A DNA stretch of 64,000 nt, from positions 10,772 to 74,771 of the forward strand of contig CAYRXH010000005.1 in assembly GCA_964428185.1 (NCBI GenBank). Direction: 5' to 3'. The stretch is from an uncultured Bacteroidales bacterium (GTDB lineage Bacteria; Bacteroidota; Bacteroidia; Bacteroidales; DTU049). Shown piece after piece: positions 1-24,717 of the stretch. A model generated the notes under the pieces. The model ran no database searches. It was not told the DNA's origin and saw only the letters and a program-made list of their open reading frames with translations. A program made the position numbers and the translations under genes. Numbering within the stretch: position 1 is the first letter of the stretch; every line of letters starts with the position of its first letter.

Positions 1-3000
1 TATTCAAAATTCTGGCGATAAAATAAAGAATATATATGATGTTGATCCTGCAACATTAAAAAGATATGATATTGATGAAGGTAAAGTAGGAGAAATTCAG
101 CAAAAGGCAAGTTCTGCTTGGAATATGGCAGGATTTTTTAATTATCATAATAGTCATTCTAATAATGTTCAAGAAACCCCAACAGCAAGAAAAATTGCTA
201 GTGCTACTGGACATAAATTTAATTATGGAGATTATGTTTCTACTGACATATATATGACTGATACACCTGGTATGTTGTTTGGCATGAGATATATGACTGA
301 TGAAGAATTAGCAGAGTTAAGGGATACTAAGTGGAATAAAGAATTGATAAAAAAATATGGTAAAGATTTAGTGAATTATTCGGCAGATGGTGCTGGTGAA
401 ATTGTAACAGTTAATGGTGAAACGCTTTTGTTATGGAAATCATTAACGTATGATGAAAATGGTATGCCACATTGGGAATGGGTGGATTTAAATAATTCTC
501 AAATACAAGGTCGTTTAAGACCTATATATGGACCAACTCCAATGTCAAGAACAGGATTTGGGGCATTTTCTAAAGGTTTATTTAATGTTATTGCTCAAGT
601 ACCTTCTATAGTTGGTTCAGCTATGGAGCAAATAGAAAATGCTATACTGTTAGGAGTTGATGAATTTATTGATTTGAACCCTAATGAATATTATATTGAA
701 AGTGTCGATGATAAAAGACCTTCTTATCTTTTACAAAATTTATCAGGAATGTTTATGTTCCATAATAGTTACAGAGGACAGCTTGATAGTTCATTTGGTA
801 GTGAGGGGTTTATGTTTAGTGCTGGAAATGTGATTGGTCAAGTTGCAGTTATGATAGCGTTATCAGCATTTTTAACTCCTGCGGCTGGATATTTATATGC
901 TGGTTTGAGTGCTGGCGATTCATTTAATCAAGTAGCAAAAGAAAGTAATGTTCCTGTTGATCAAAGACTTGCTATGTATGCTGGTAGTGTGATAACAGCT
1001 TTAGCTGTTGAAAGATTTGGTAGAATGATTGGATTAAGTCCTTTTGAACAATTTGGAGTAAGATCTGGCGTGTATAAAGGAATTACACAATATGCAAAAG
1101 AAATGGCGGAAAAGAGAACGGGAATTACAATACAACGAATGTATGAGGCATCTTTGAAGGATAAGAAGATATGGCAAAAATTATATATGAAAAATTTTTA
1201 CAAGCAAACATTTTCAAAATATGCCATGTATAATGCAATGGGTTCAGTGGAGGCGACATTAAGGCAATCAACTGGAGAAGGATTAGAAGAAGTTATGCAA
1301 CTTCCGCTTGATAATTTAATGTATGCTGTTCATGATTATGTAAATCAAGAAGAAATATTATATAGTCAAATAGCAGATGTAGAAGAAAGTAAGAGAAAAT
1401 TTTTATTGGATTATGATTATCGTGACAGTATGCTTAGAAATTATGTAAGAAATACATTTACATTAGGAAACATGTCATCACACTTTATACTAGGTTTTAT
1501 AGGTGGTTTAGGTGGTAGTTCAGTTGGTATGGCAATTAGAAAGTTGTCAAAAGACCCTAGCATAAAGAATCATAGGGAAATGAATTTGCTTACATTATAT
1601 ATGATATCTAAAGGCAATATAGAAAAGATAGAGAAAGCGGCTAAAGAATTATATTTAGGAAAAAAAGGAGGAAAAGCTCCATTATCTTTTACTCATACAG
1701 ATGGAACTACGCCAGTTAATATAGGAGATAAAAGTTTAAATGAAATAGCATATGAAGCATTTTTACAAGATATTAAATCTGTAAAACATATAATTGAAGA
1801 ATTAAAATTAAATTCTTTTAATATTAATGGGTCAATGGCTAGAGATAAAGAATTTTTACATGACGTATTAAATTTAAGTAATGAATACTTTATAGCTAAG
1901 ACCAAAGTAGAAAAGTTAAATGAAGAAATAGCAATATTACGTAATGAAAAAGGAAATGAAAGTACTATACAGTCTAAGGAAAAGGAGCTTGCAGATGCTA
2001 CTGCAAATATGAACGATGTTAAATCTAAAATACATGAATATACAACACCTGAATCAAACAGAAAACCATTTAGTAAACAAGCAAATGATAGAATAAGGGC
2101 ATATGCTTATGCAGAAGAAATATCTAAACAACAGTTAAAACAATTACGTGATAATCATGAGAAACTGTTAAAAGAAAAAAAGATAAAACCAGGAAGCAAA
2201 AAAGAGAAAGAGTTATTGCATAATATTGCATTAGAGGTTATGCAAAGTATGCCTAAATATAATGAAGTAAAGAAAACATGGACTAGTGTTGGTGAAAATT
2301 TTAATAAAGATGTATTAGAAGACCATAATAATAGTGTTAATGAGTTAGTATCAATATTTGATTCAATTGAGATTAGTATTTCTGAAGCACTTAAAAAAGC
2401 AGATCCTAGTGTTAATCTTAGTGGTGTACGTTTATCATCTATTATTGAACAAGGTAATATGTTACTATCAAGGATAGCAGAAAGAAAATATATTGATTTA
2501 CATAAGCAATTAGCAGCATCAGAAGGAATGGAATATGTTGTTGATCCAGATTTAGATGTAAGTGATTTAACATATGAAGCAGCACTTGAATTAAGAAATA
2601 ATATAAATAAAACATTTAGCGATAAAGGATTAAGATATTCTAATAAAGATGATGCAAATATTGATTTAATAAATATATTAGAATTGTATGCAGGTAAAGG
2701 AGGACTTGTTATTGATGGAAGTACTCAAAATGGACAGATATTGTTGGATTTATTAAGTAGAAATGGTTTTGAGTTTAATAGGATTTCAAAAGAAATAGAT
2801 AGTGGCAAATTGCCTGGTATAGAGAAAAATATTAATCATGTAGATAGCAATATTAGCATATCTAGTCCTGGTAAAGAAGGAAATAAATTGAATTTTTATG
2901 TTGCAGATTCATCCAAAATGTCCATTGAGGAAATATTATATTTACGTGGATTAATGATATACAATAACGTAAGAAATAATATTTTGGATGAAAATGGAAA

Positions 3001-6000
3001 TGTGAAAAAGGTAGATGTAGATATTGAGGCTAATATGATTGCATTAGATAATGTGATAGATGCATTAGCATTAATAAAAGCTAGGAGAGTATTTGATAGT
3101 GCGATGGGCAAGGTTAAAGAAAATGTACTTGATTTTCGTCAGGATAAAGATGGAGAAAGAATATATGATGAAGATGTACTTACTAATGATGATAAGATAG
3201 CAAATGAAGCTATAAAAGAAGAAATAGAAGTTTTAGAAAATGATGTTAATAAACTTATAGAACAATTAAAAGAAACAGATGTATATAAAAATTCTATAGC
3301 TGAAATTATTGCTTCATCAGAAGCTAAGAGAAAATTAGGTTTTTGGATAACAGCATTAACAGATGGTAATGAACCTTTGACAGCTGGTGTTCAGTTGTTA
3401 AAAAAAGCAAAGATTGGCAATATTGAATATTTGATAAAAGAGCTTATTGGGTTTAATAAGAAACTCATTAGAGAAGAAAATGAACTTAGAGAAAATGGAT
3501 ATAATACAGATAAAATGTCTCAAAGAAATAGAGTATTAATTAATAGTGCTATTGAAGTATTAGAAAGAGCAATATTTAAAGCGTACACAGATGTTGAAAA
3601 TCCTGGTGCAAAAGAATATATTAAAGAATGGATTAAGTTGCAGATGGATATCTATTTTACCCCAGTGATGAATGATAGTAATTCAAAGAATGTTTATTTC
3701 CTTAATTATTTTAGAAATCATATGGCGTATAATATAGTGGACCCATTACATCAAGGAGTGTCAAGTATAAAAGACGCATTTACTGAAGGTAAAAAAGCAC
3801 AAAACTATAATCCATCATATCATTGGATGGTTAATTATTTGCACACTATGATTAATAGTGATATGAGTTTACTTAAAAATAATATAACTTCAGCAATAGA
3901 AAATTTAAATACATATATTCCTTCACTTGAACAACAGTTAGTACAGATTTATATACAATCTGTTTTACAAAAAAAATATATTGATGACTTTGTTATTCAA
4001 TATGATATGGGAAAATATAAGCAAGCTATAGGAATGGTAGATGAGAATGGAGAAGTTGTAACTATAGAAAAAGCTAAGGAAATATATGCAAAGATGCAAG
4101 ATGGAAACTTAAAAACGGAGTATGCAAAGGTTATAGCAAAATATGAATCATCAATGTATCCTAAGTTTGAAAACGATGATACTATGTTTATGAATCATGG
4201 TGTAACATTAGTAGGAAATGCAGGAACTGGTAAAACAGAGATGACAGGATTAAGTGCGTTGATATATGCAATTAATAATGGGTTAAGTCATGTAAAATTA
4301 TCTGTTGTAGCGTCTGATATAGATTTGATAGAAAAGATTACAAATTCTATTAATAGAGTATTTGGAGAATATAATAAAAATAGTGAACAAAAAATAACAT
4401 TTGAAGTTAAAAAATCTTTATTGCAAGATGTATTATCTAAAGATGGTAATTCTGATGATAATTCATACATTATTAATTCATCTGATTTGGTTATTTTAGA
4501 TGAAGCAGGAAGATTGGATGATCAAATGTTGAAAAAAATAAGAAAATTACATAAAGCATCAAATATTAATAAACATACTGGATTTTTATTTTTAGGAGAT
4601 AATCAACAGATACAAGTGCATCCAAAAGATATGTCTGCTCAAGCATCAGGGATGAATGTAGCTATGCAAACAATTCATACTATGCCATTACAATATTCGT
4701 TTAGGAGTGGTAATACTATAATAAGTGAACTGAACAGGTGGTGGGGTGAAAGAGTATTTTCTTCACAATGGGTTGGTAATCTTGTTCCTACGCCTCCTAC
4801 AATGTATTATGAGGAATCATCTGATGGTATAAGAGATGGTGGTAAATATTATTCTTCAATAGATGAAATTGTAGAAGATTATATAAAAAGAAGAAAAGCG
4901 ATTGGTGAAAAAGCAATAATTGTATTTGAAACACAAGAAGCATTTGATGAGTATAGGAAAAAACATCCAGGTGTATTTAGTAATGATATAAGCGGAGTAA
5001 GGGTACTATATAATAATTTGCTTAGCACTGACCCTAATTTGTTACGTTCTATTCAGGGAGGAGAAGTTTCAGAAGTATATGTAGCAATAGAACCTGCAGA
5101 TACTCGTAATAGATTAGTGCCTGTTGATAAGACTGTATATCCAATGATGATGACAACTGCAACATCTAGGGCAATGAGATTTGTTGGTTCAATCATGGAT
5201 AATGCTAAATCATTAAATAAAAAAACAGATAAATCTTTTAAGATATACGAAAAACCTACTTCAGATAAAATTAAAGAAATAGCAGAAGCTAATAAAGAAT
5301 TAATAAGATTAGAAAATAAAAATGAGTTTCCAGACCTTCATCGTATAGTATTTTATAGTAGATATAATTATTTGTATGAAGACGAAGGAAAAGAGGAAGA
5401 CGAAGGAAAAGAGGAAGACGAAGGAAAAGAGGAAGACGAAGGAAAAGAGGAAGACAAAGGAAAAGAGAAAGACAAAGGAAAAGAGAAAGACAAAGGAAAA
5501 AAGGAAGGCGAAGGAAAAGGGAAAAGAAAATCTACAAATAAAAAAACAAAGAAAGAAAATAAAAAGAATTTTATTTTTCAAGAATCAGGATATAAAGCAA
5601 TGGCATATATTAATGGAGAATCAGTATCTGTTACTGTATTATTCCATTATATGGAAGGAGATGTGGAAAAGGTAATGACAGCAGAGCATGGTCCTTTATT
5701 AATTGATAATTTAATTGAAAAAAATCCAATAACAGAAGAAGCATATAGATCAGATACATATGTTAGTAGAGATAATTATAATTATGCAATAACGCCAGGA
5801 GTAGTATCAGAATCTGATTGGAATAAGGTATCATCAAAAAATAAACTTGTATTAGGCAAAATAAAGGCTATTAAGACAAAATTATTACAGGGTGCATATG
5901 ATGGGTCACTTTTAAAAGATTCTTCGTCTAAAGTCATTAAAATAATATATTCAAATATTCCCGAAAATTATGTAAATGCTGTTAGTCATGAATATAAAAA

Positions 6001-9000
6001 AGATGTTGAGGTTAAAACTGTTGGTTTCTATAATCAAATAAAGATTATGGTTAATATTAATATGCTAAATATTCAGAATGAAGAAGAATATAATTTAATT
6101 AATTCAATGGCGGATTCTGAAGGATGGGTTCAAGTAGGAAATGTTTATACATTTAACAATGGTTCATCAGATATATCAGATACTGCTGTTATTGAAAAAA
6201 TGAAATCTGAATATAAGTCATCTTATGTTTCTTCATCAAATACATCTATAGATAAACAATTAGATGGTGTTTATAGGATGGCAAATTATTTTAAAGGAGG
6301 AAAAACATATACATCTGAAGAATTTAAAGATATATTGGGAGATGATCATGTACATATGACACATCATATGGCTTCGTCAGGTATTGTACCAGTCGATGCA
6401 TTAGATATAGATTCAGCAATGAATCCAAGTATGAGTGAAGACAAGAAGATTATTATTACATTTTTGTCGAAAAATAAATTTGGGAGCGATATAGTAGCAA
6501 TTGCAAACACAATTAATTTGAAAGACAAAACAGAAATGGATCATAATTATTTAACTGTACTAAAAGAAGATATCGAAATATTAAAACAGTTAAAATCTGG
6601 CGTAATAACAGATGAAGAATATAAAAAACTTTCAGACAATATAGCATTGCGAATGATGTATATTGCCGCTAATAGGTCTGCTGTTGGTATGACAACGCAA
6701 TTTAATGCAAAATTGAGATTAGATGATGTAACAACATTATCTTACATAAAAGAATATATAGAAAGGCTTGAAGACTTTTTAAAAGATAGTAATAATCATG
6801 AACAATTATATGTTCCTGCATGGGATAAAGGTGAAATAAAATTTAATAATTTATATACAAGAGTGTTTGGTATAACAAATAATATGTTTATAGATGTAAA
6901 TAAATTAGGAGATATGCCAAAACCAAAAGATAGTGGTTCAAGATTAGAAAGTGCTGATTCAAGTTTAAGAGATACTGGTATAGATACAAAAGATACTGAT
7001 TTAGATACAAAACCAAAAGAACCATCTATTGATAAAAGTACAGAATCATTGAAAAAGAAAACAAGGGCATTCATGGAGAGAGATAATTCTGAAGTGGAGT
7101 GGGTTGATATTACAAATGAAATTATTGATTTAGCTGTTTCACAAATAGGTCAAAGTGAATTTGATAATATTGTATGGAATACAGATAAATTTAGAAAGGG
7201 AGTTGTTGGTGCTATATCTAATGCTAAAATGCATATTAAAATGCATAATGGAAAAATTGCAAAAGGTGTTATTCAACATGAGATATTTCATTTAATATTT
7301 AGATATGGTATAACTAATGAATCAAGAGTTAGAGTTATTGAACAATATAAAAGCAACCAAATTGCAAAAGGTAATTATTCTGTAGAAAATAAAACTTACG
7401 ATGATATAGAAGAAATGATGGCAAATGAATTTATGGCGATGGAAACAGAACCTGAGCCTACTTCATTATGGGGAAAACTCGTAAGATTTATGAGAAGATT
7501 GGTAGATCGTTTTATGGCATTTTTTACTGACCAAACTAAAGTATCTTCTTATGATTCCTTAGTAAAATATATTCAAAAAGGGTATTATGCAAATAAAATA
7601 AATGTTGATCGTTCAATTGTTTATGGTGATGCATATATGGAAGAAATAGACAATTCAGAAAACTATGAAGAATATGATAATAGCGAAGATCAATTAAATA
7701 ATGAAGAATTATTAGAAGTATATGAAATGTTTAAAGACAATACTTCTAAAGTAATGATAAGTAAGTTCGCAAAAAATGCTATATTAAATGGTACAATATA
7801 TGGACAAGGTGATGGTTCTAATGTTCATATATCAATAGAAGATTCTATAAATGAACTAAAGCAAGAAATAAAAAATACGTTAAAAAATTCTAATGAAAAT
7901 ACATTTAAAATTAGAAATCCAGAAACAGGGCAGATATATGATATAAGAACTATGTCGCCAACAGAATATAAAAGAATTGTTCCAGAACATTTAAGAGATT
8001 ATGATTTGTATTTTTATGGATTATTTTATGGATTAAGTGATAAAAAACTAGATAACAGGATTAATGCGTTTGTTAAAACATTATTTCCTAATGCCAAGAC
8101 AAAACAAGATTATAATATATTGTTTAGAGAATCTAATTTGAAGCCTGCCATAGAAACAATGTCAAATCCTATACGAGATTTGTTGTCAGGACTTGTTGTT
8201 GAAATGTTTACATATAAAGAGGTAAGAAAGAATACATATTTAGATACAGATAGTGGTTCTAAATTATATTCTAATCTTCCATATATAAATAACAATGCTA
8301 TTTATAAGATTGCAGGTATTATTTCTGAAGCTGTAGCGTTAGGTAGGATTAAAACTACAAATATTGAAGAAGGATTAATTCAGATGGCTAAGGAAATAGA
8401 AAATGCTGCGTTATCAGAAGTTAAAGTTAAAGGTGCTTCTCATTATAATTTTATGGCAGATCAATTGATGACTGTTGCTAAATATTTGTATAATGAAGCA
8501 GACATAAATAATTCTAACCCAACATCTATATGGGGTAGAATGAAAAAAACTGATAATAAATTAGTAAAATCTCATTTAGAAATGTTTGTGGTGGCGTTTA
8601 AGGTTCAAATGCAGTCTATCACAAGAAGAAATGTTGCTTTAATAAATACTAGAACTGGTATAAGATTTAAAGATAGTTCAGAGCTTGGTATATATAAATC
8701 TAATAAAAAGAATTCTATTATTAAAAAAATATATGATAATGGTTCAACATATACAGAAAAGGCTATACAATTATTTAGTAGAACAAGTTTAACACAAAAA
8801 TATCATGTCAGGAAAGATGGAGAAGGTGTATCAATTTATGGAAGAACTACTGATGGGGAACTACCATTAGTAACATTTAAAACTACATATAATGGTGTGG
8901 TGTTGGCAGAATATAATAAAGATATTCAACCTTCATTTATGGCACATTATTTTTCTGAAATATTAAATAGTATAGGGTTTTGGACAAGGACAACTGAAAT

Positions 9001-12000
9001 GTTGGATATTTTGGAAAATTATGTTAAGTATTCGGGTGCTATAGGTAATGTAATGCATAACAGTAGCGGTCGATTTTTGCCAGTTACTGTTGCAGGTTTT
9101 TTAACATCTGTGCAATTAGGTACTCAAGGACAATACATAAAAAATCTTATTAGTAAGATTAATAAGACTACTGCAGGACATCCTGTTAGAGATGGGGGTA
9201 TTGGACAAGCAATAGATTTTGTTTCTGATTTATGGATTCCTGTGTTTAGAAGTAGAGACCCAAAAAATATAAGTAATGGTTTACAAAAGAAAATAGATGA
9301 TTTAATAGGTGTTCTTAAATATAATGATATATATTCAAAAGAACTTGAAGAAAAAATAACACCTGTACTTAATTCAATTAAGGAAATATCTCAGTTTTAT
9401 AGAGAATTAATTGAACAATTTAGAGGTTCAAAAAATTTAACCTCTGATATAGATATAATGAATGTTCCTGAAGAAGATATTAATGTTGAAGAACAAAGAA
9501 ATAATATTACTCCATCTCCTTTGAATTTTGATATTACTTTTAATGTTCTATATGAAGTTTCACATGAGATGAAAATGTCACATAACAAGAATTACAGAAT
9601 TGATGGTACTGTTGATGCATATAATGTTCAAAGTGGTAATTCAGCAAAAGTTGTAAAGCAATTTGTAGGAAGTAGGGCACTTCCAAAAAAATATTCAAGA
9701 TTAAGAAAAGCAAAAGCAGAAGTTCGATATGCTTCAGAAAATAGAAATAGAGCATTAACTATGTTATTTAATCCTCTATTTCCTAGTGATAATGATGATC
9801 CACTGATTGATGTATATCAAATGGCGCATGTAACAGATTATGTAGAATATGGAAGGGGTGTTACTGATATGGAGCCAGGAGATGCTTTAATGGCAGAATT
9901 AACAGCTGTTATTACAGGATTAAAAAAAGATGATGCTATTATAGGTAAAAGTGTGTTTGGAGATAATAATCATCTATTTTTATATGAAGTTGAAGGTAAT
10001 ATGAAATATTATCTCCTTCAAGCATTAGCAGAGACTACTAGCGGAAAACCAATAAATTTAAATGAGAATGTATCATTAAATAATCCTATGAAATATACAT
10101 TGAAATTGTTAAAAAACGCTTTTATGTCATGCCATGTATCTCATGTCAATAGTGTTTTAAATTTATTGGATTCAATGAAGTCATTGCTTGTTAAGACCAA
10201 TATAGAAAGTTCAGCCAAAGGAGAACAAGATTACCTTATTGAGTTAGGTCTTGTAACAGGTCTTATTGAATATGTAGGAAAATTTGCGGTTTATAGTAAG
10301 AATCTTGAAGAAACAGCACACGAATATCATTTCAAGGATGTTATACTGAGAATGAATGACATATTAAAAAGACTTGAAACAATTTATGGAGATTCTAAAA
10401 ATACGTATGATAAGTTATTGGAGATGGGAGCAGTGGATGGTAAAGACATAAAATTATCTAATGGTAAATTAATTTTAGGTACAGCAGCTTCATTTAATAC
10501 ACAATCAGTATATAAAGAGAAAGGAGGATTTGAAAGATTTACAGTAGATGATTATGTATATAATGGTGTGAGCATGTATGGAACAGATAAGACAGAATCA
10601 ATAATGAAGTTCAATCCTACTACCATGAAAGAAGCTACAGATAAATTATGGGGGATGTTTGGGGTAGAAATGAATATTTATCAAAATTATATATATAATG
10701 TATTAAAACAGAATAGAACAAACAAAGATGTTAATAAGTTCTTTAGTTCAATAATTGGAACTGATGGTTCAGGAGTTATATTAAGAAAAGGAACAAATGA
10801 AGCTCCTATTTATAATCCTGGTATGTTTTTTTATTATTTGTATTATCATTTTGTTAATCAAGCAATGGATCATGCAATATCAGGGCATGCATTTAATTAT
10901 ACATCTCCAGAAGTAAATTCAATAAGAAAGAAAATGTTTGAAACTCCAGGAGAAAATGCAACTGCATCAGAAACAGGATTAGGAGAAACATATAAAGTAG
11001 CAATATTAAAAGATACAGAAATACCTGTAATGGTAGAAATGTATAATATGGCTGTAGAAGATTCAGAAAAGGTTACTGTTGAAGAAATAGCAACAATAAC
11101 GGATGGTGCTTCAATAGATACAGCAATAGGTAGAATGTTATTATTGAACAGTTTTGGAAATAAATTATCAGGATTAACAGCTACAGCATTAAAGTTTGCT
11201 TATGCAGACTATAATTGGCATACTGATGAAGTTGTTATTAAAAAAGATAGTCAATTATCTATTACACCTGAAGATGTATTACTATCTCCTGAAAAACATC
11301 TTGCATTAGAATATATTGCTTTAGCTCAATTCGATAAGTCGTTGGCAGATAAATTTATTGAAATATATAGTGATAATGTAAATAAAGGAAAAAGAAGGGA
11401 TCATGCATTTGCTGCTGCTGTGGAATATGCATATAATGTTATACAGGATATGCGAAAATCAAATCCAAAAATAATAGAAAATGTTATTGTTTCAATAACA
11501 CATCCTTCTGCTATTAAAATAGGTGCAAGGAATGTTAATAATATTACTTTGGATAATATTTTAGAAGCAAAACAACTAAATACAATTAGTCTTCATACTG
11601 AAAGTTTAAGAATGATTTTTAATCCTGATAGTGAAATTGAGAATAGCAGAGGTGAAGTATTATTTAAACAGGCATATCATTTAGGAAGCGGAGCACTTAA
11701 TCCTGATGATGCATTACAAATGGAAACTGAATTATCTGTGGCTATATTAAAGTCAATGGAAAAATTAGGGATGAATAAAGATGGTAAGTTGGATGAAGCC
11801 AATTTTACTGCAAAATCTATTATGGAAAAAGCATTGTCGAAAACTAGAACAGGGATGGAACAAACTATGACAGTTGGAACTGCAATAGATTTATTAGATG
11901 CCACAAGAAAACGCTTTGACTTGATTCAATTTGCTAATATAAATTCTAAGGTAATACAGTCATTAAGTAAAATGATAACAGAATCATCTGCTAAAATAAG

Positions 12001-15000
12001 GTTTACTGGAACAGGATATAACCAAGTTGTGGATGTTTTATATAAAGTATATGATGTTACCATATTAAACGATGATGGTTATAAAAGTACAATGACTGTT
12101 ACTAAAAATGGACTTGATACTTTAATGCAAAGATATTCAGCAGATAAATTAACTATTTCAAAGCCAAGAGCATTGAAAGAAATGGGAGTGAAAAATGGAA
12201 AAGCAACGAGAGGTGAAGTTATTGCTCAAACAGTTAATATGCATAAATTTGGTATTAGACCTGGCGAACATTACATGGCAGAGCTTATGCTTATGGATGT
12301 AAAAGTGCAGGATAAAGTACTAACAATTAATATTATGGATATTAGCGAAGATGGAATGTATAATGGGGTAAAAATATTTAATGAAAAAGGTAATATTAAA
12401 GATGTTAAAAATGCAACATTATTGGAAACTGAAGGTTCTAAAGAGTTTGCTAATCATCTTGATAAGATAAATAGTTTTAAAAAATCATTAGATTTACAGT
12501 TATATAGAAAGCCAACATCTACATTATCATCTGGTGGTTTATATGTTGTTGTTGAATTTAGGTCTGATAATAGTGCCATAACATCAAGCAAAAAAATTGC
12601 ATGGGATGATTCTGACTTTGATATTGACCGTTTATATGGATATGAATATTCATTGGATGATTATGTACATGATAAAAAAACTGGGGAAAAAGAATATACT
12701 CATGGAGTGCACTTGGACAATGTATTAACAATGATTAACAAAGCATATGATAATTTAGCAGCAAATGGTGATCTAAGAGTTTCCATATCAACAAAACAAT
12801 TAGAAGAACTTGATGTAGTTAAAAATCACAATAAGATTAAAAGTTCCATAAATACTCCACAATCTTCTCATACAATTAGACAGCAAAATTATGAAGGGAA
12901 AAAAGCTATTGATAGATATGCAAATATCTTAACAACAACTGCAATGTTGATAAAAATTGCAAAGATGGGTGATTTATCAAAAAATATTTTACACAATGAA
13001 TCCTATGATGGGATATTTGAACAGGCTTCAAATATAGTAAGAAATTTTTTCAATGTTAGTAACTATAAAGATATTATTCAAAAAGCTATTTTATTACAGG
13101 CAGCAATTGATAATGTTAAACAAGCTATGCTTGGGAAAACGGGATTAAGTCGTCATGCTACCAATGAGATAACAGCTATGCTTTATGGTAATAATTCAAT
13201 GAAAAGAATTGTTAAATTTATGAATCATCCTTTGGTAAGAGAAATATATGACGAAATAGATCGTAATAATAGATTAACAACTAATGGAAGAATAACAACA
13301 ACATTTATGTTATTGGCAAAGAAAGCATATGTTGAATCTGGTGGAAAGAGTTATTTTTTTGAAAAACCTGATAATATTAATGAAATACAAAATAAATTCT
13401 ATAAACTTAAAACACAAGATCAAATATTAGCACAGTATCACAATATGGTTAAAGGAATAGAATCATCAGAGAAATTGAGTGATGAGAAAAAACAACAGGC
13501 TGTTCAAAGAGCTTTTCTTTATTTACAAAATTCATTAGGTCATGAAAAAGAAATAAGAAAATATGTTTATTATATTTTACAGCAATATTCATTGGCTGGT
13601 GAGATATTTAAAAGAATAACATTTTTGACTGATGTAATGGATGGGGTAAAATCAAAATCATATGAAGAAGATAGTCTTATTAGGTTAGTTGAAAATGCCT
13701 TTGGAAAGCCATTTGATTCGATTGATTTTACAGAAGCAGGATTTGGAAAAGAATTATTGAATCATGATGATGAAGTTGTAGATAGATTAGTAAAATGGGA
13801 GGCTGTTAATAATGATATTTATATTAGAATGGAAGATGAAGTAAAGGGAGCTTATTTATTCATGATAGAACACATAAATAAAATTTTTAAGATAGGTAAT
13901 TTGTTTCAGGTTATGCCATTAATGAGAACTCATGCAATGATCCATCAATATAGAAATAGTATTGTATCTGAAACCATACATACTAATTCAAAGCAAATAG
14001 AAGACATAAGACAGAGGATAATGAAAAATTTAGGAATTGGTATATCTACAAATAAATCTCGTTTTTATGCCTTTCAAAATGCTATAAACAGTATGTTTTT
14101 ATCTGAAGCGTTTAATAAGTTTATTGATTCTCATCCAATATTTTCATCTGGCTTTAATATGGAATATTTTGAACTTATAGAAGGTGGAATTAAAGTAAAT
14201 GAAAACAATGAAGGATATAAAAATATAGATTTGAGGTCAGCTATTACAGGTCGTAGTAGATTTATTAAAAGATTTCCATCTTATATTATGAATTTTGCAG
14301 AATATCTTAATGCACTAAATTTTGCCAATCTTGTGCTTTCACGTGATCCTAAAAATCAACGTGCAATAGAAACAAGAGATATGATTATTTCAAATTTAAA
14401 AAATAGTTATTATGTTAAAGATACTACTGCTATAGAAGAATCACTAAAAAAATTTCAAGGAGATAACTTTTTTAATTATGTAACAGTATATGGTGAAAAT
14501 TATAATCAATTGTTGGTAATAAGAGATTCTGTTCAGTTGAGAGAAAGTGTAACTATGTTTATGTCTATACAGGAAATGTTTAGAGCATTACCCGAAGAAA
14601 TAAGAGATATGTTTGCTATATATGAATTAATATTAAATGAAATGAAGATAAAAAAATCTTCATTATATGATGTTATTGGTCCAGATATATTTGAAAAGTT
14701 AGTTCCTTATTTTCCCACAGCACAACAATTTTTAGAAAATGCTTCTTTTGATACTATATTGGAGAACATAGCACTAAGTGATGATATATTATATGCAGAG
14801 TATAATGAAGATAGTGATACTGTCAAATCAAAGCTCCTTGAACGAATGAAATTGACAGATACTAAAAAAACATATATAAAAAATAAAACAGTAAAAAAAT
14901 ACAATAATAAAGATGAGATTGTTAAATTAGTTGGTATAGATGAAGTAACAGATGAAGGAAGATCATTTGAATTTATTGGTATGCCTGTATGGAATGTTGC

Positions 15001-16327
15001 AGTAAAGAATGCATTGCCACATAGTAAAACAGAAAGGATGGGATCTGTTGATCGTGTAATGAAAAATCTAAATGAAAAACAAATAGCAGAATTAATTACC
15101 AAAGGTTCTACAAGAGTAGAATTATACAGAGGACATAATTATACACCAGATGATAAAAAGATAGAACAAGAGTATGTTACATATATGACTAATGCGGGAA
15201 TACGTGTAGTAATTACTGCAGTGAATGAAACAAATATTTATATAAGAGCAACAGAAGAAGAACAAGTAATTCCAATGGAAATTAAAGTTGAAGAAAAACA
15301 AAAACCAGAAGGAATTGCAACAGTTCATGATAAAGCTAAAGAAGTTGTGGGAATAAATGAATCAATCAATGATAATTTTGTTGGAAAGGGAAATTATTAT
15401 GTACACGTAAGAGATTCTAATTTTAAAAGGCTAAGAGTAACTACAGTATTAAATTCACAAACAGACATTAATAATGTACTTAAAGATGTTTCATATGATG
15501 AAATGAATTTAAGGACTAAACTTGCAATTAGTGATGGCAATATAGCAGACAGAGTGTTAAAACAATTTATACCAATGTTGCCAAATGTAATTCTTGTAGA
15601 AGAATATGCTAAGATTGTAAATTCTCCTATAATTGATGAGTTTGTTAAAGTTGTTAAGGAAGAATATGGTAAGTTAGGCATTGATAATCCAATCATTGAA
15701 TATATTAACAATGATACTATGTTGAGAGCTATAGGTGTAGAATATATTAGAGCTATAATGTTAAGTAGAAAACTTAATGATATACAAAGTATTGTTAATC
15801 CTGGTGGTAGAGTTAGTGTAGTTGGACTTAATGACATATCAGCATTTAAAAAGTATGGCAATATGGAGGTACAAGGAACAACAGATACAGTATTTATAAC
15901 AAGAGAAAAAGGGATGTTTGTTCATTATGTATTAGACTATAAGACATATAAAGCAGATGTTAAAGGTCTTGAATCAGATGCAATGAATAAAGCGATGCAA
16001 CAAGTAAAAACATATTCTGATATGATAACTTCAACATATCAAATTAGACCTGGTGGATATATGGTAATGAAAGTTATGAAGTTATCAGAATTTATTAAAC
16101 AAACTAGAATAAGGTTTGAAGAAGGAAAAGTAAAAGTTGATGGAATACCAAATAATATGGTATTTTTGAAAGCTGAAAAGTATAATTCTATGGATATGAA
16201 AAAACATATAGAAGATATTCAGAAAACAACTAATGAAATCAATGATTTATTAAGTTCAGAAGTTAATGCTCAGGTTATATCAGATATAAAGAAAAATAAT
16301 GGAGAAGCTAATAATATAAATTGCTAA
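1..16327 (+). CDS. Giant multidomain virion-RNAP polyprotein (crAss-type two-barrel RNA polymerase fused to hydrophobic N-terminal segments, SF1 helicase-like ATPase, zincin motif and RecB-like nuclease). The 5' end is probably outside the window.
   Basis: The ORF track gives 125..16327 (5400 aa). The same frame (codons from nt 2) has no stop back to the window edge. Motifs read in the translation: GNAGTGKT, ILDEAG, GDNQQ, HEIFH, RKPTSTLSSGG...DSDFDIDR, D..DYK..QVKTY. Confidence 0.85.
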   Translation, partial: IQNSGDKIKNIYDVDPATLKRYDIDEGKVGEIQQKASSAWNMAGFFNYHNSHSNNVQETPTARKIASATGHKFNYGDYVSTDIYMTDTPGMLFGMRYMTDEELAELRDTKWNKELIKKYGKDLVNYSADGAGEIVTVNGETLLLWKSLTYDENGMPHWEWVDLNNSQIQGRLRPIYGPTPMSRTGFGAFSKGLFNVIAQVPSIVGSAMEQIENAILLGVDEFIDLNPNEYYIESVDDKRPSYLLQNLSGMFMFHNSYRGQLDSSFGSEGFMFSAGNVIGQVAVMIALSAFLTPAAGYLYAGLSAGDSFNQVAKESNVPVDQRLAMYAGSVITALAVERFGRMIGLSPFEQFGVRSGVYKGITQYAKEMAEKRTGITIQRMYEASLKDKKIWQKLYMKNFYKQTFSKYAMYNAMGSVEATLRQSTGEGLEEVMQLPLDNLMYAVHDYVNQEEILYSQIADVEESKRKFLLDYDYRDSMLRNYVRNTFTLGNMSSHFILGFIGGLGGSSVGMAIRKLSKDPSIKNHREMNLLTLYMISKGNIEKIEKAAKELYLGKKGGKAPLSFTHTDGTTPVNIGDKSLNEIAYEAFLQDIKSVKHIIEELKLNSFNINGSMARDKEFLHDVLNLSNEYFIAKTKVEKLNEEIAILRNEKGNESTIQSKEKELADATANMNDVKSKIHEYTTPESNRKPFSKQANDRIRAYAYAEEISKQQLKQLRDNHEKLLKEKKIKPGSKKEKELLHNIALEVMQSMPKYNEVKKTWTSVGENFNKDVLEDHNNSVNELVSIFDSIEISISEALKKADPSVNLSGVRLSSIIEQGNMLLSRIAERKYIDLHKQLAASEGMEYVVDPDLDVSDLTYEAALELRNNINKTFSDKGLRYSNKDDANIDLINILELYAGKGGLVIDGSTQNGQILLDLLSRNGFEFNRISKEIDSGKLPGIEKNINHVDSNISISSPGKEGNKLNFYVADSSKMSIEEILYLRGLMIYNNVRNNILDENGNVKKVDVDIEANMIALDNVIDALALIKARRVFDSAMGKVKENVLDFRQDKDGERIYDEDVLTNDDKIANEAIKEEIEVLENDVNKLIEQLKETDVYKNSIAEIIASSEAKRKLGFWITALTDGNEPLTAGVQLLKKAKIGNIEYLIKELIGFNKKLIREENELRENGYNTDKMSQRNRVLINSAIEVLERAIFKAYTDVENPGAKEYIKEWIKLQMDIYFTPVMNDSNSKNVYFLNYFRNHMAYNIVDPLHQGVSSIKDAFTEGKKAQNYNPSYHWMVNYLHTMINSDMSLLKNNITSAIENLNTYIPSLEQQLVQIYIQSVLQKKYIDDFVIQYDMGKYKQAIGMVDENGEVVTIEKAKEIYAKMQDGNLKTEYAKVIAKYESSMYPKFENDDTMFMNHGVTLVGNAGTGKTEMTGLSALIYAINNGLSHVKLSVVASDIDLIEKITNSINRVFGEYNKNSEQKITFEVKKSLLQDVLSKDGNSDDNSYIINSSDLVILDEAGRLDDQMLKKIRKLHKASNINKHTGFLFLGDNQQIQVHPKDMSAQASGMNVAMQTIHTMPLQYSFRSGNTIISELNRWWGERVFSSQWVGNLVPTPPTMYYEESSDGIRDGGKYYSSIDEIVEDYIKRRKAIGEKAIIVFETQEAFDEYRKKHPGVFSNDISGVRVLYNNLLSTDPNLLRSIQGGEVSEVYVAIEPADTRNRLVPVDKTVYPMMMTTATSRAMRFVGSIMDNAKSLNKKTDKSFKIYEKPTSDKIKEIAEANKELIRLENKNEFPDLHRIVFYSRYNYLYEDEGKEEDEGKEEDEGKEEDEGKEEDKGKEKDKGKEKDKGKKEGEGKGKRKSTNKKTKKENKKNFIFQESGYKAMAYINGESVSVTVLFHYMEGDVEKVMTAEHGPLLIDNLIEKNPITEEAYRSDTYVSRDNYNYAITPGVVSESDWNKVSSKNKLVLGKIKAIKTKLLQGAYDGSLLKDSSSKVIKIIYSNIPENYVNAVSHEYKKDVEVKTVGFYNQIKIMVNINMLNIQNEEEYNLINSMADSEGWVQVGNVYTFNNGSSDISDTAVIEKMKSEYKSSYVSSSNTSIDKQLDGVYRMANYFKGGKTYTSEEFKDILGDDHVHMTHHMASSGIVPVDALDIDSAMNPSMSEDKKIIITFLSKNKFGSDIVAIANTINLKDKTEMDHNYLTVLKEDIEILKQLKSGVITDEEYKKLSDNIALRMMYIAANRSAVGMTTQFNAKLRLDDVTTLSYIKEYIERLEDFLKDSNNHEQLYVPAWDKGEIKFNNLYTRVFGITNNMFIDVNKLGDMPKPKDSGSRLESADSSLRDTGIDTKDTDLDTKPKEPSIDKSTESLKKKTRAFMERDNSEVEWVDITNEIIDLAVSQIGQSEFDNIVWNTDKFRKGVVGAISNAKMHIKMHNGKIAKGVIQHEIFHLIFRYGITNESRVRVIEQYKSNQIAKGNYSVENKTYDDIEEMMANEFMAMETEPEPTSLWGKLVRFMRRLVDRFMAFFTDQTKVSSYDSLVKYIQKGYYANKINVDRSIVYGDAYMEEIDNSENYEEYDNSEDQLNNEELLEVYEMFKDNTSKVMISKFAKNAILNGTIYGQGDGSNVHISIEDSINELKQEIKNTLKNSNENTFKIRNPETGQIYDIRTMSPTEYKRIVPEHLRDYDLYFYGLFYGLSDKKLDNRINAFVKTLFPNAKTKQDYNILFRESNLKPAIETMSNPIRDLLSGLVVEMFTYKEVRKNTYLDTDSGSKLYSNLPYINNNAIYKIAGIISEAVALGRIKTTNIEEGLIQMAKEIENAALSEVKVKGASHYNFMADQLMTVAKYLYNEADINNSNPTSIWGRMKKTDNKLVKSHLEMFVVAFKVQMQSITRRNVALINTRTGIRFKDSSELGIYKSNKKNSIIKKIYDNGSTYTEKAIQLFSRTSLTQKYHVRKDGEGVSIYGRTTDGELPLVTFKTTYNGVVLAEYNKDIQPSFMAHYFSEILNSIGFWTRTTEMLDILENYVKYSGAIGNVMHNSSGRFLPVTVAGFLTSVQLGTQGQYIKNLISKINKTTAGHPVRDGGIGQAIDFVSDLWIPVFRSRDPKNISNGLQKKIDDLIGVLKYNDIYSKELEEKITPVLNSIKEISQFYRELIEQFRGSKNLTSDIDIMNVPEEDINVEEQRNNITPSPLNFDITFNVLYEVSHEMKMSHNKNYRIDGTVDAYNVQSGNSAKVVKQFVGSRALPKKYSRLRKAKAEVRYASENRNRALTMLFNPLFPSDNDDPLIDVYQMAHVTDYVEYGRGVTDMEPGDALMAELTAVITGLKKDDAIIGKSVFGDNNHLFLYEVEGNMKYYLLQALAETTSGKPINLNENVSLNNPMKYTLKLLKNAFMSCHVSHVNSVLNLLDSMKSLLVKTNIESSAKGEQDYLIELGLVTGLIEYVGKFAVYSKNLEETAHEYHFKDVILRMNDILKRLETIYGDSKNTYDKLLEMGAVDGKDIKLSNGKLILGTAASFNTQSVYKEKGGFERFTVDDYVYNGVSMYGTDKTESIMKFNPTTMKEATDKLWGMFGVEMNIYQNYIYNVLKQNRTNKDVNKFFSSIIGTDGSGVILRKGTNEAPIYNPGMFFYYLYYHFVNQAMDHAISGHAFNYTSPEVNSIRKKMFETPGENATASETGLGETYKVAILKDTEIPVMVEMYNMAVEDSEKVTVEEIATITDGASIDTAIGRMLLLNSFGNKLSGLTATALKFAYADYNWHTDEVVIKKDSQLSITPEDVLLSPEKHLALEYIALAQFDKSLADKFIEIYSDNVNKGKRRDHAFAAAVEYAYNVIQDMRKSNPKIIENVIVSITHPSAIKIGARNVNNITLDNILEAKQLNTISLHTESLRMIFNPDSEIENSRGEVLFKQAYHLGSGALNPDDALQMETELSVAILKSMEKLGMNKDGKLDEANFTAKSIMEKALSKTRTGMEQTMTVGTAIDLLDATRKRFDLIQFANINSKVIQSLSKMITESSAKIRFTGTGYNQVVDVLYKVYDVTILNDDGYKSTMTVTKNGLDTLMQRYSADKLTISKPRALKEMGVKNGKATRGEVIAQTVNMHKFGIRPGEHYMAELMLMDVKVQDKVLTINIMDISEDGMYNGVKIFNEKGNIKDVKNATLLETEGSKEFANHLDKINSFKKSLDLQLYRKPTSTLSSGGLYVVVEFRSDNSAITSSKKIAWDDSDFDIDRLYGYEYSLDDYVHDKKTGEKEYTHGVHLDNVLTMINKAYDNLAANGDLRVSISTKQLEELDVVKNHNKIKSSINTPQSSHTIRQQNYEGKKAIDRYANILTTTAMLIKIAKMGDLSKNILHNESYDGIFEQASNIVRNFFNVSNYKDIIQKAILLQAAIDNVKQAMLGKTGLSRHATNEITAMLYGNNSMKRIVKFMNHPLVREIYDEIDRNNRLTTNGRITTTFMLLAKKAYVESGGKSYFFEKPDNINEIQNKFYKLKTQDQILAQYHNMVKGIESSEKLSDEKKQQAVQRAFLYLQNSLGHEKEIRKYVYYILQQYSLAGEIFKRITFLTDVMDGVKSKSYEEDSLIRLVENAFGKPFDSIDFTEAGFGKELLNHDDEVVDRLVKWEAVNNDIYIRMEDEVKGAYLFMIEHINKIFKIGNLFQVMPLMRTHAMIHQYRNSIVSETIHTNSKQIEDIRQRIMKNLGIGISTNKSRFYAFQNAINSMFLSEAFNKFIDSHPIFSSGFNMEYFELIEGGIKVNENNEGYKNIDLRSAITGRSRFIKRFPSYIMNFAEYLNALNFANLVLSRDPKNQRAIETRDMIISNLKNSYYVKDTTAIEESLKKFQGDNFFNYVTVYGENYNQLLVIRDSVQLRESVTMFMSIQEMFRALPEEIRDMFAIYELILNEMKIKKSSLYDVIGPDIFEKLVPYFPTAQQFLENASFDTILENIALSDDILYAEYNEDSDTVKSKLLERMKLTDTKKTYIKNKTVKKYNNKDEIVKLVGIDEVTDEGRSFEFIGMPVWNVAVKNALPHSKTERMGSVDRVMKNLNEKQIAELITKGSTRVELYRGHNYTPDDKKIEQEYVTYMTNAGIRVVITAVNETNIYIRATEEEQVIPMEIKVEEKQKPEGIATVHDKAKEVVGINESINDNFVGKGNYYVHVRDSNFKRLRVTTVLNSQTDINNVLKDVSYDEMNLRTKLAISDGNIADRVLKQFIPMLPNVILVEEYAKIVNSPIIDEFVKVVKEEYGKLGIDNPIIEYINNDTMLRAIGVEYIRAIMLSRKLNDIQSIVNPGGRVSVVGLNDISAFKKYGNMEVQGTTDTVFITREKGMFVHYVLDYKTYKADVKGLESDAMNKAMQQVKTYSDMITSTYQIRPGGYMVMKVMKLSEFIKQTRIRFEEGKVKVDGIPNNMVFLKAEKYNSMDMKKHIEDIQKTTNEINDLLSSEVNAQVISDIKKNNGEANNINC
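809..1012 (+). other. Gly/Ala-rich hydrophobic (membrane-insertion-like) segments in the giant protein
   Basis: FMFSAGNVIGQVAVMIALSAFLTPAAGYLYAGLSAG and LAMYAGSVITALAV. A further segment, HFILGFIGGLGGSSVGMAI, lies at about 1481-1540. These resemble channel-forming ejection or tape-measure segments. Confidence 0.4.
4214..5180 (+). other. SF1 (RecD-like) helicase/ATPase-like module in the giant protein
   Basis: Walker A GNAGTGKT (nt 4214-4237, aa 1364-1371 counted from the ATG at 125). Walker B VILDEAG (DE at 4499-4504). FLGDNQQIQ at about 4595. C-terminal TTATSRAMRFV resembles SF1 motif VI (TRA-type). Confidence 0.6.
5378..5521 (+). repeat. In-frame tandem repeat, 8 x 18 bp, encoding a charged EDEGKE to KDKGKE linker
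   Basis: gaagacgaaggaaaagag occurs 4 times perfectly, followed by 4 progressively diverged copies (E to K substitutions). Protein reads EDEGKEEDEGKEEDEGKEEDEGKEEDKGKEKDKGKEKDKGKKEGEGKG. Confidence 0.95.
7277..7291 (+). other. HExxH zincin metalloprotease motif (HEIFH) in the giant protein
   Basis: VIQHEIFHLIFRYG is followed about 45 aa later by IEEMMANEFMAM, a possible third-ligand Glu (gluzincin-like arrangement). Confidence 0.5.
12614..12628 (+). other. DxDxD catalytic metal-binding motif (DFDID) of a two-barrel RNA polymerase
   Basis: LYRKPTSTLSSGGLYVVVEF...KKIAWDDSDFDIDRLYGY parallels the beta-prime pattern RQPSLH...NADFDGD. aa 4164-4168 counted from the ATG at 125. Confidence 0.75.
15884..16015 (+). 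other. RecB/Cas4-type PD-(D/E)xK nuclease core at the C-terminus of the giant protein
   Basis: GTTD(5254)TVFITREKGMFVHYVLD(5271)YK(5273)TYK, then QQVKTY (QxxxY, 16001-16015). Confidence 0.6.
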
Positions 16328-16331
16328 TTAT

Positions 16332-20873: not shown

Positions 20874-20879
20874 AATATT

Positions 20880-22076
20880 ATGGCACATAATCAATCTTTA
20901 CAATTTATTATTATACAAGGCGGAACTTGTGATTATATTAATGTACGTGAACAGGCTCTTTGGGAATCTGCTGAATTACCAGTAGAAAGAGAAGATGTTG
21001 GATTAGCACTATTTTATGTTCATCCTATTTCTGGGTTAATAGGTTGTGATTTAAGTAATCCTGGAAATAACAATACGAATGCAGAATGGACAGTTCCAAT
21101 AGTAAATACGGGACAGTATCATGTTTATATGTTTGCTGTTATGAGATGGACACCAGGTAGTGTATGGGATCAAGGGAGTATAGTATATCATAATGGATAT
21201 TTTTGGCAAAGTTTAGTATTAACAAATAATGAACCTACAGATATTAGTCCCGATTGGGAACAGTTAGATTGTACTAATTTTAATGAATTTAATATATATT
21301 GTACAAATAGTGTTCCTGTACCATTTGAATCAGCATATTTTACATCTATATATAATAGTGAATGTGTAAGTGCTAGGATATATAATATTGCGTGTAATAG
21401 TTATGTAGTTCAAAACATAGCAGCACCTGATATAAACCAGCAACCAAACTTTTTATTACCAATATTAATAAAAGTATGGAATTTGTCCATGACTGAAGAA
21501 GTTATGGAATGTATATATGTTGATGTTATGGCAGGAGAAACATTTTCTAACATTCAATTACCAAATAATGATGGAGTTTATATTATAGAAGTAGGTTATG
21601 GAAGTTATACAAATGTTGTATGGGATAATAATAATCCACCTAATATGATATCATATGAAATAGTAAGAAATTGTGTATTTAATGCAGATTTGCCAACAAA
21701 TCAATATGTAGTATATGGAATATGTAATATAGAATCATGTTGGAAAGCCTTATATGATAAGATAATGTGTAAACCAATAGACCCATGTTGTCAAAGTTGT
21801 GACCCAGAGGAAAAAGAAGAAATAGAAAATTTTAGATATACATTAAATATGATTAATGCATTATGGTTTAATTTAATGTCATATATTGAATTAGAACAAG
21901 GGATATATATGCATATGTATAATATTTACAGTATAAACGGAGAAGTCATAGACCCTGTTAGAATGAATTTTATACAACATATAGCAGATACAATAGAAAA
22001 AATAAATGAATTAACAAATAGATGTGGTGATTGTAATGGCACTCAAAGTAATATAAGTAATTGTACTGAATGTTAA
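20880..22076 (+). CDS. Cys-rich structural protein with a CBM5/12-like carbohydrate-binding motif (candidate receptor-binding or tail protein)
   Basis: WTPGSVWDQGSIVYHNGYFWQSLVLTNNEPTDISPDWEQL resembles the W..Y..G..V.Y.G..Y.......P......W pattern. The C-terminal third holds many Cys (CKPIDPCCQSCDPEE, CGDCNG, CTEC). Confidence 0.45.
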   Translation: MAHNQSLQFIIIQGGTCDYINVREQALWESAELPVEREDVGLALFYVHPISGLIGCDLSNPGNNNTNAEWTVPIVNTGQYHVYMFAVMRWTPGSVWDQGSIVYHNGYFWQSLVLTNNEPTDISPDWEQLDCTNFNEFNIYCTNSVPVPFESAYFTSIYNSECVSARIYNIACNSYVVQNIAAPDINQQPNFLLPILIKVWNLSMTEEVMECIYVDVMAGETFSNIQLPNNDGVYIIEVGYGSYTNVVWDNNNPPNMISYEIVRNCVFNADLPTNQYVVYGICNIESCWKALYDKIMCKPIDPCCQSCDPEEKEEIENFRYTLNMINALWFNLMSYIELEQGIYMHMYNIYSINGEVIDPVRMNFIQHIADTIEKINELTNRCGDCNGTQSNISNCTEC

Positions 22077-22088
22077 GGAGGATATAAT

Positions 22089-22562: not shown

Positions 22563-22658
22563 TATTAAAAAGACAAAGAATAAGGAATAAAGAAAAAGAA
22601 TTAGTTTAAATATTAAAAAATACACATATTAAATTAAAAGAATTAAAAACATAAAATT

Positions 22659-24254: not shown

Positions 24255-24273
24255 TATTGAGAGTAATTTTATT

Positions 24274-24708: not shown

Positions 24709-24717
24709 TTTTAGTTG

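Follow-up and report, generated by a model that had tools for sequence, protein, structure and literature searches.

A giant open reading frame in a distant crAss-like phage, probably joining gp47-like, virion RNA polymerase and RecB-family nuclease parts

The 64,000-nucleotide stretch analyzed in this study (the window) covers positions 10,772 to 74,771 of contig CAYRXH010000005.1, from the assembly GCA_964428185.1 of an uncultured Bacteroidales bacterium. It begins inside an open reading frame (ORF) that stays open for more than 16 kb. What does a frame of this length encode, and is it a single gene? An initial annotation, made from the sequence alone, read it as a crAss-type virion RNA polymerase (RNAP) fused to helicase-like, zincin and RecB-like nuclease modules. 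With a probability of about 0.8, we consider the ORF to be the main transcription-block gene of a highly divergent crAss-like podophage, encoding a polypeptide of ~5,480 amino acids (aa). Its parts would be, in order, N-terminal hydrophobic segments with long helical stretches, a gp47-like part, an RNAP of the gp66/gp50 type, and a RecB-family nuclease; a gp65/gp49-like protein is encoded by the next gene.

The crAss-like phages carry their RNAPs in the virion. In phi14:2, early genes are transcribed by gp66, an active virion RNAP; some phages have orthologues of gp65, gp66, and gp67 as fusions, which are probably cleaved (bioRxiv 10.1101/2020.03.07.982082). Virions of crAss001 contain gp47 (262 kDa, RNAP-associated), gp49, and gp50 as cargo (PMC10172136). 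An RNAP of this family that is present in virions and makes early-gene RNA in a DNA-dependent, rifampicin-resistant manner is known only for phi14:2 and crAss001 (bioRxiv 10.1101/2020.03.07.982082; PMC10172136). RNAP genes encoding up to ~6,000 aa are described as a hallmark of the Crassvirales (PMC10136315), and giant ORFs of the crAssphage type have been reported up to 15 kb or ~6,000 aa. In this study, we aimed to establish whether the giant ORF is real, which parts it contains, and how it compares with these proteins.

Extent and integrity of the giant ORF

The frame that is open from nt 2 on the plus strand runs through 5,441 sense codons to a single stop, TAA at 16325-16327, as the initial annotation had stated. 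The remaining five frames of the same 16.3 kb carry 196-823 stops each. The G+C content of the DNA is ~28%, and at the lowest stop density seen, the probability of such a frame is about e^-199; hence, the frame is not open by chance. The ORF (2..16327) is cut at its 5' end by the window edge. Its earliest ATG is at nt 125, and the 41 codons before this ATG are coding. Residues are numbered here from nt 2. In the homologue alignment, window aa 2 corresponds to aa 44 of the homologue P0002, and window aa 14 to aa 46 of the homologue P0003. Therefore, ~35-45 residues should lie outside the window, giving a complete protein of ~5,475-5,485 aa, and the earlier proposal of a start codon upstream of the window is supported. 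The start codon of P0002 lies 14 nt downstream of the preceding gene in its own contig, and in the contigs of P0002 and P0003 this close upstream neighbour encodes ~700-760 aa. The DNA upstream of the window was not found when viral, metagenome, and genome collections were scanned for exact patterns.

Homologues were collected by an exhaustive HMMER search and by IMG/VR pattern scans with RNAP motifs. The HMMER search, with aa 3550-4749 as the query, returned seven relatives. Complete homologues are P0002, P0003, and P0005 (5,631, 5,567, and 5,278 aa), with Logan, JGI, and ENA as the sources. Several other searches were blank. PHROGs gave no match for either half of the giant ORF, and Pfam gave only weak P-loop matches when the whole ORF was submitted. 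The ORF had no match in a single-sequence phmmer search against the PDB, or in tblastn and megablast searches against 50,697 GenBank phage records. IMG/VR searched with two ORF segments as single proteins yielded no related locus.

An ORF of this length could be an artefact of assembly or annotation, in which a chimeric contig or a missed frameshift joins what are truly two or more genes. The first 5.4 kb of the ORF lie outside the independent Logan contigs, and stops or frameshifts sometimes disrupt Crassvirales RNAP genes (PMC7886860). Against an artefact stand the zero in-frame stops over 5,441 codons of AT-rich DNA and the agreement of independent data. Window 10880-24832 is 100% identical to two independent Logan assemblies, SRR11582163 and SRR11582162, in which the giant gene as called ends at the contig edge (3,615 and 3,082 aa). 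The three complete homologues are collinear with the window protein from end to end, including the first 1,800 aa, at 22-36% identity. We regard an artefact as highly improbable; the giant ORF is real.

Parts of the giant protein

The region of aa ~2650-5130 (7949..15391, plus strand) is, with strong support from profile comparison, a full-length homologue of the characterized crAss virion RNAPs gp66 of phi14:2 and gp50 of crAss001. The family profile was compared with a gp66 and gp50 alignment using hhalign; the match had a probability of 97.5% (E 7.7e-12) and was collinear with gp66 28-2133. An enlarged profile, to which six IMG/VR relatives had been added, gave 99.1% (E 1e-18) and spanned gp66 428-2156. 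Eight proteins from the same phages, used as controls, gave E values of at least 0.43. In a plain hidden Markov model (HMM) search, the enlarged profile matched crAss001 gp50 with an E value of 8.7e-10 (nominal database 1e5).

The motifs of the predicted catalytic beta'-like barrel, YRKPTS (R-x-P-T) followed 30 residues on by SDFDID, were located by alignment with gp66 (12506..12628, plus strand). RKPTSTLSSGG begins at aa 4169 (nt 12506), DSDFDIDR at aa 4203, and SDFDIDRLY occupies aa 4204-4212. The DFDID core (aa 4205-4209, nt 12614-12628) was superposed on gp66 1361-DFDID-1365 at the maximum hhalign confidence, and its equivalent in gp50 is DFDVD. The signature reads DSDFDIDRLY in the window protein, GSDFDIDKMY (position 1361) in gp66, and GSDFDVDKLY in gp50. 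In a joint alignment of eight sequences (the family, gp66, and gp50), R-x-P of YRKPTS, S-D-x-D-x-D, G..Q, A-N, and L..D..K were invariant. The identity of the RNAP core to gp66 and gp50 is ~17-18%. The beta' double-psi barrel of cellular RNAPs likewise has DFDxD about 30 residues after R-x-P-T (NRAPTLH...NADFDGD). The crAss-type virion RNAP named in the initial annotation is strongly supported at the profile level, with its catalytic motif aligned.

The RNAP part is followed by a predicted RecB-family PD-(D/E)xK nuclease domain (aa 5130-5441, 15389..16324, plus strand), assigned from Pfam, an AlphaFold2 (AF2) model searched with Foldseek, and motifs. Its core (nt 15884-16015) comprises D5295 (nt 15884), DYK at aa 5312, and QVKTY at aa 5334 (nt 16001-16015); D5295, D5312, K5314, Q5334, and Y5338 are invariant in four sequences. 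Pfam PDDEXK_1 matched three of the four members (best E 1.3e-9), and the window copy scored 19 bits (E 1.4e-3), under the cutoff of 22 bits. The AF2 model had a predicted local distance difference test (pLDDT) score of 66.8, with ~80 in the core. The best Foldseek match was Cas4 SSO0001 (E 2.8e-5), and RecE, AddAB, MGME1, RecB, and Dna2 were also retrieved. The matches had probabilities of ~1, yet template modelling (TM) scores of only 0.2-0.35. A search of PDB sequences with the nuclease profile gave no meaningful match. Taken together, these data agree with the RecB-like terminal nuclease proposed earlier. The Cas4/AddB subgroup with a four-cysteine iron-sulfur cluster was ruled out, as the 312-aa domain contains one Cys, its last residue. 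The nuclease domain is absent from P0005 and from the six IMG/VR giants that cover the region.

The C terminus has two further features. P0005, the most distant full-length member, carries an unrelated C-terminal stretch of ~220 aa in place of the nuclease. A Cys lies within the last three residues of every member (..NINC, ..ETEC, ..KICK, ..ETCIK, ..VNCK), even in the nuclease-less P0005; in the window, the conserved Cys is the final codon, 16322-16324.

Upstream of the RNAP part, the region of aa ~1300-2650 (3899..7951, plus strand) resembles crAss001 gp47. The hhalign match to gp47 472-2329 was collinear, with a probability of 93% and an E value of 3.4e-7; seven controls gave E values of at least 0.3. 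This region contains a predicted superfamily 1 (SF1) helicase-type ATPase module of the RecD/Dda type (aa ~1390-1740, 4169..5221, plus strand), recognized by Pfam, a PDB profile search, and motifs. Motifs I (Walker A, GNAGTGKT; aa 1405, nt 4214), II (Walker B, DE in ILDEAG; aa 1498, nt 4493), III (GDNQQ; aa 1532), V (QG), and VI (T..SRA; TSRA at aa 1721) occur in order, and all five are invariant in the four-sequence family alignment. Pfam AAA_30 and AAA_19, which are models of RecD-like N-domains, matched all four family members (best E 4.3e-11), and the window copy scored 27.2 bits against AAA_30 (cutoff 27). The best PDB profile matches were 9kwf_B and Escherichia coli RecD, 1w36_D (RecD E 0.003). 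For the C-domain, UvrD_C_2 was found in only one of the four members (E ~1e-3), and the match of motifs V and VI to 9kwf_B was weak. Every one of the six IMG/VR relatives has the SF1 module with an intact Walker A motif (E 1e-14 to 1e-20). The order of motifs had been read earlier as that of SF1/RecD, and the N-domain profile matches support this reading; the SF1B (RecD/Dda-type) ATPase/helicase module is apparently active.

The corresponding cargo proteins of cultured phages, crAss001 gp47 and phi14:2 gp67, had no Pfam helicase match and no Walker A motif. In the hhalign alignment, GLVGIPGFRST and DVIMFDKAGR of gp47 (aa ~495-620) stand opposite LVGNAGTGKT and DLVILDEAGR of the window protein (aa 1400-1505). 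Therefore, gp47 may carry a degenerate or inactivated remnant of an SF1 P-loop. In the literature text covered (figures and Yutin et al., 2018 excepted), an SF1 helicase module inside such proteins is not mentioned.

The gp47-like part also contains an HExxH...E metallopeptidase-like module (7139..7681, plus strand), identified by its motif and by homology to the C terminus of crAss001 gp47. HEIFH is at aa 2426 (nt 7277-7291), and the distal Glu is at aa 2471 (nt 7412-7414). The residues H2426, E2427, H2430, and E2471 do not vary among the 10 aligned sequences, one of which is gp47, and an HMM of the module matched gp47 aa 2122-2316 with an E value of 4.9e-7. We call the module zincin-like because of the motif and because such an assignment has been published for the related gp65 family; it is zincin-like by motif and is not placed in a zincin family. 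The zincin domain proposed at HEIFH was supported at the motif level, by HExxH and a distal Glu, and had no support from Pfam or PDB profiles.

The N-terminal region contains Gly/Ala-rich hydrophobic segments (aa 270-337 and 494-513; 809..1540, plus strand), as noted initially. A transmembrane-like Kyte-Doolittle score is reached by aa 269-300 alone. The Gly/Ala pattern is kept in the family consensus, and the region may serve in membrane insertion or as a channel. Comparison of the N-terminal part with phi14:2 gp67 and gp68-71 and with crAss001 gp44-46 detected no homology. The helicase module is followed by a charged linker, (EDEGKE)n/(DKGKEK)n, encoded by an 18-bp tandem repeat. Tandem Repeats Finder gave 8.2 copies at 5378..5523 (plus strand, 93% matches), confirming the repeat counted earlier as eight copies at 5378-5521. 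At this position, the homologues have an acidic, non-repetitive linker. All motifs listed in the initial annotation are present at their sites, and differences in coordinates reflect which residue was indexed. For example, ILDEAG was placed at 4499, which is its DE, and the motif RKPTSTLSSGG...DSDFDIDR was placed at 12614, which is DFDID.

Gene block, fusion variants, and genome context

The giant ORF sits at the crAss transcription block, which consists of gp67-gp66-gp65 in phi14:2 and of gp47, gp50, and gp49 in crAss001. Four nt past its stop, a separate gene encodes a 1,513-aa protein (16332..20873, plus strand) with its own HExxH motif (HEFSH, aa 163). Its hhalign match to the RNAP-associated proteins gp65 and gp49 (97.2%, E 2.9e-11) identifies it as their orthologue, and it is also homologous to the C-terminal part of IMG/VR giant ORFs (E ~1e-41). 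Three co-directional genes for proteins of 398, 157, and 531 aa close the block (20880..24254, plus strand), as seen from the ORF list and from synteny with the P0002 contig. These three proteins had no family matches; the N terminus of the 531-aa protein matches the gene downstream of an IMG/VR giant. The gene order in the P0002 contig is 5631-1580-390-156-266 aa, and homologue contigs in general have the giant gene, a gene for ~1,500-1,600 aa at or just after its stop, and then genes for ~390 and 156 aa. Upstream of the giant gene, the P0002 contig encodes a Pfam crAss_MUZ muzzle protein and, faintly, a crAss ring protein.

The initial annotation had also proposed that proteins separate elsewhere are fused here. 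This applies to the gp47-like and gp66/gp50-like proteins, which are joined; the gp65/gp49-like protein stays a separate gene. The scans with RNAP motifs turned up IMG/VR relatives in which the frame that carries the RNAP stays open over at least 5,566-6,132 codons of the loci examined, and a single frame holds the SF1 module, a first HExxH, DxDxD, and then a gp65-like region with a second HExxH. IMGVR_UViG_3300028415_000003 has a complete ORF of 6,605 aa (joined coordinates 7902-27782). At the other end of the range, P0001 (Logan SRR34579708, 3863-12898) is a stand-alone gene for a 3,011-aa RNAP-plus-nuclease protein that is homologous to window aa ~2570-5441. Thus, the building blocks occur as three genes in cultured phages, as two in the window, as one in IMG/VR, or with the RNAP part alone. 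Because P0001 has the RNAP and nuclease on their own and the IMG/VR relatives additionally fuse the gp65-like part, the junction near aa 2570-2690 is, on sequence grounds, a genuine module boundary.

Three observations concern these relatives. The 6,605-aa ORF, with SF1, two HExxH motifs, RNAP, and the gp65-like part, exceeds the size of up to about 6,000 aa given in reviews. The context of P0001 is unlike a phage structural block, with three small ORFs before the gene and a class-V aminotransferase-like gene nearby on the opposite strand. P0007 (NCBI HNX01553.1), a partial sequence related to the RNAP core, was deposited under the name of a hypothetical protein from a Candidatus Cloacimonadota metagenome-assembled genome; it could be a clue to the clade's habitat or host range, or a binning artefact.

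The genome is that of a distant crAss-like phage, since PHROGs and tblastn identified the terminase (TerL, 52318-54375; ~25% identical to Crassvirales, with nothing closer), the portal (54385-56958), and the major capsid protein (59140-60579), and since crAss_MUZ is encoded in the syntenic homologue contig. The replication module lies on the minus strand. No tRNA gene was found in the 64 kb using ARAGORN. Among ORFs of 150 aa or more (31 in total), the stop codons are TAA (24), TGA (5), and TAG (2); nothing in this usage points to the reassignment of stop codons that some crAss-like phages show.

Elsewhere in the window, three minus-strand paralogues share phrog_18079, of unknown function: 25021-25884 (E 1e-34), 37377-38453 (3e-32), and 38528-39277 (1.5e-15). 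A 314-aa protein on the minus strand (44293-45237) matches two PHROGs of unknown function, phrog_7964 (2e-93) and phrog_5070 (5e-83), and the two-stretch form of the matches suggests an internal duplication. The G+C content is 0.36 at 24001-26000, compared with ~0.28 elsewhere, at the switch of the coding strand and the reversal of GC skew. At 62619-64000, another frame runs without a stop through at least 460 codons until the window ends on its 3' side, so that a further large late gene is cut by the edge.

Interpretation and comparison with known systems

The reading of the ORF as a crAss-like transcription-block fusion has several points to its credit. The ORF is conserved, its RNAP, SF1, and nuclease motifs are intact, and profile alignments relate it to two proteins found in the virions of cultured crassviruses. 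A number of results weigh against this reading or limit it. A plain HMM search of PDB sequences with the family profile of the RNAP core found no match, gp66 included; because of this, the link to gp66 and gp50 is carried by the profile-profile comparison and the enlarged HMM. An AF2 model of aa 3600-4480, built from a six-sequence alignment, had a mean pLDDT of 43.6 and no Foldseek match in the PDB at E <= 0.001; its quality is too low for it to be weighed on either side. The two-barrel fold is predicted from profile homology to gp66. Virion RNAPs from crAss-like phages have been described as extremely divergent (PMC7886860), and blank direct searches of the RNAP part are expected for such enzymes. 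The homology to gp47 is of moderate strength (93%, E 3e-7), hhalign with the gp47-like part did not detect phi14:2 gp67 (E 0.31), and the first ~1,300 aa have no assigned homologue. No Pfam peptidase matched the HExxH module in any of the 10 members, and its best PDB profile hits were unrelated, with astacin at E ~4 over the HExxH helix. Late expression, packaging, ejection, and early-gene transcription are attributed to this phage by analogy; its cleavage and what the accessory enzymes do are more speculative.

By that analogy, with phi14:2 and crAss001, the giant protein would be made late and packed into the capsid as cargo, would leave through the tail in a partly unfolded state, before the DNA or together with it, and would transcribe early genes in the cell independently of the host RNAP. 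More speculatively, the helicase module would most plausibly open or translocate the incoming DNA template, and the nuclease might act on host or template DNA ends. It is also conceivable that the HExxH module cleaves the polyprotein at the junction of the gp47-like and RNAP parts near aa 2570-2690; alternatively, it could attack cell-wall or host targets.

The main mechanistic rival is a working protein that is never cleaved. The polypeptide would then be one giant multi-enzyme comparable with the 3,500-aa N4 virion RNAP, in which helicase, RNAP, and nuclease work in cis on the incoming genome, and the HExxH module is directed at peptidoglycan or host proteins instead of the polyprotein. Fusion and domain order are kept over deep divergence (22-36% identity), the three-part 6,605-aa fusions in relatives suggest that the covalent link is tolerated or useful, and both options have been left open for the zincin domains of virion RNAPs (bioRxiv 10.1101/2020.03.07.982082; PMC5512222). 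However, the same parts are separate in phi14:2, crAss001, and P0001 and can therefore function unlinked, and a protein of ~620 kDa would have to pass a tail channel narrower than 50 Å (PMC10172136). We hold the uncleaved form to be a credible but minority possibility. The helicase and nuclease could instead be effectors that a polyvalent protein directs against the host or its defences, riding on the RNAP cargo, outside the transcription machinery, for example to degrade host DNA or to counter restriction. Polyvalent proteins of this sort, which reach the cell with the virion and unite zincin-like peptidases with helicases, nucleases, and RNAPs, have been described (PMC5512222). Both modules look accessory, as the nuclease is dispensable (missing in P0005 and the six IMG/VR giants covering the region) and the P-loop of gp47 appears degenerate. 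Nevertheless, the SF1 motifs are intact in all ten sequences, family members and IMG/VR relatives together, that span the region, which points to a core role in the clade, and a defence-related context was not seen; an effector role seems unlikely. A bolder proposal, which we rate as rather improbable, is that an injected RNAP, covalently joined to a working SF1B motor and a nuclease of the RecB type, forms a self-contained entry machine, possibly an uncleaved one of ~620 kDa; cultured crassviruses such as crAss001 would keep a dead motor remnant in gp47. Here, the helicase would reel in or open the phage genome for the polymerase, and the nuclease would clear host or blocked DNA.

For the preferred reading, a virion RNAP fusion at the transcription block, much of the general picture is not new. 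Fusion into a huge virion polyprotein and the hypothesis of its cleavage by a zincin have already been published (bioRxiv 10.1101/2020.03.07.982082; bioRxiv 10.1101/295642; PMC10136315; PMC7886860). The fused crAss RNAP architecture had thus been partly described, together with the cleavage hypothesis, and the mechanism put forward in the initial annotation is essentially this published hypothesis; its reading of the ORF was correct, but the novelty was overstated. The giant fusion itself would not surprise a specialist, and fused RNAP giants with protease-like and nuclease domains remain an already recognized hallmark of crAss-like phages. What the locus adds is a deeply divergent lineage of crAss-type virion RNAPs, with no tblastn match among GenBank phages and a TerL of ~25% identity. 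The family also offers natural experiments on the joining and splitting of transcription-block proteins, in the form of two-part fusions, a three-part fusion of 6,605 aa, a stand-alone RNAP-nuclease, and three separate genes. Furthermore, the intact SF1B motor, set against the seemingly degenerate P-loop of crAss001 gp47, suggests a testable function for the unexplained gp47/gp67 cargo.

Multidomain proteins that are delivered with the virion and combine zincin-like peptidases with helicases, nucleases, and RNAPs have been described as polyvalent proteins (Iyer et al., 2017, PMC5512222), and autoprocessing by the zincin domain has been proposed for them (PMC5512222). The domain composition of the window protein fits this description, and its delivery with the DNA would follow the example of crAss001 and phi14:2. 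The helicases described in PMC5512222 are mostly SNF2/SF2, whereas the window module is SF1B. The N4-type virion RNAP, which has zincin-like metallopeptidase domains (PMC5512222), consists of a single subunit of the T7 kind and has no relation to the two-barrel RNAP of crAss-like phages. P23-45 has a two-barrel RNAP inside a virion protein of ~5,000 aa (bioRxiv 10.1101/2022.12.01.518664), a likeness drawn from its description; unlike in the window, the fusion partner is the tail tape measure of a siphovirus. PDDEXK domains occur in large transcription-block proteins of some crAss-like phages, according to Yutin et al. (2021, PMC7886860), so that a nuclease likewise lies inside a giant transcription-associated protein. 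In the window, the PD-(D/E)xK domain makes up the C-terminal 310 aa of the protein that carries the RNAP and is RecB/RecE-like, without the Cas4-type four-cysteine cluster.

The closest counterparts are the crAss proteins themselves. The phi14:2 gp66 (2,180 aa, with a crystal structure; roughly 2,200 aa in the initial annotation) and crAss001 gp50 (2,412 aa) show the same collinear RNAP homology and the same SDFDID[KR][LM]Y motif type, and their genes lie at the same place in the genome, where the late/structural array ends, before the strand switch. Unlike gp66 and gp50, the window RNAP is fused to ~2,650 aa at its N terminus, gp47-like in part, and to a nuclease at its C terminus. The protein shares its C-terminal HExxH...E module with crAss001 gp47 (2,341 aa), whose P-loop looks degenerate, whereas the window protein keeps all SF1 motifs. 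The fused gp67-gp66-gp65 'huge polyprotein' of uncultured crAss-like phages represents the same idea with the same module order; by comparison, the window fuses two of the three proteins, and a nuclease and a conserved stop codon follow the RNAP. The window variant is distinguished by this two-of-three fusion, its intact SF1B motor, and its C-terminal RecB-like nuclease.

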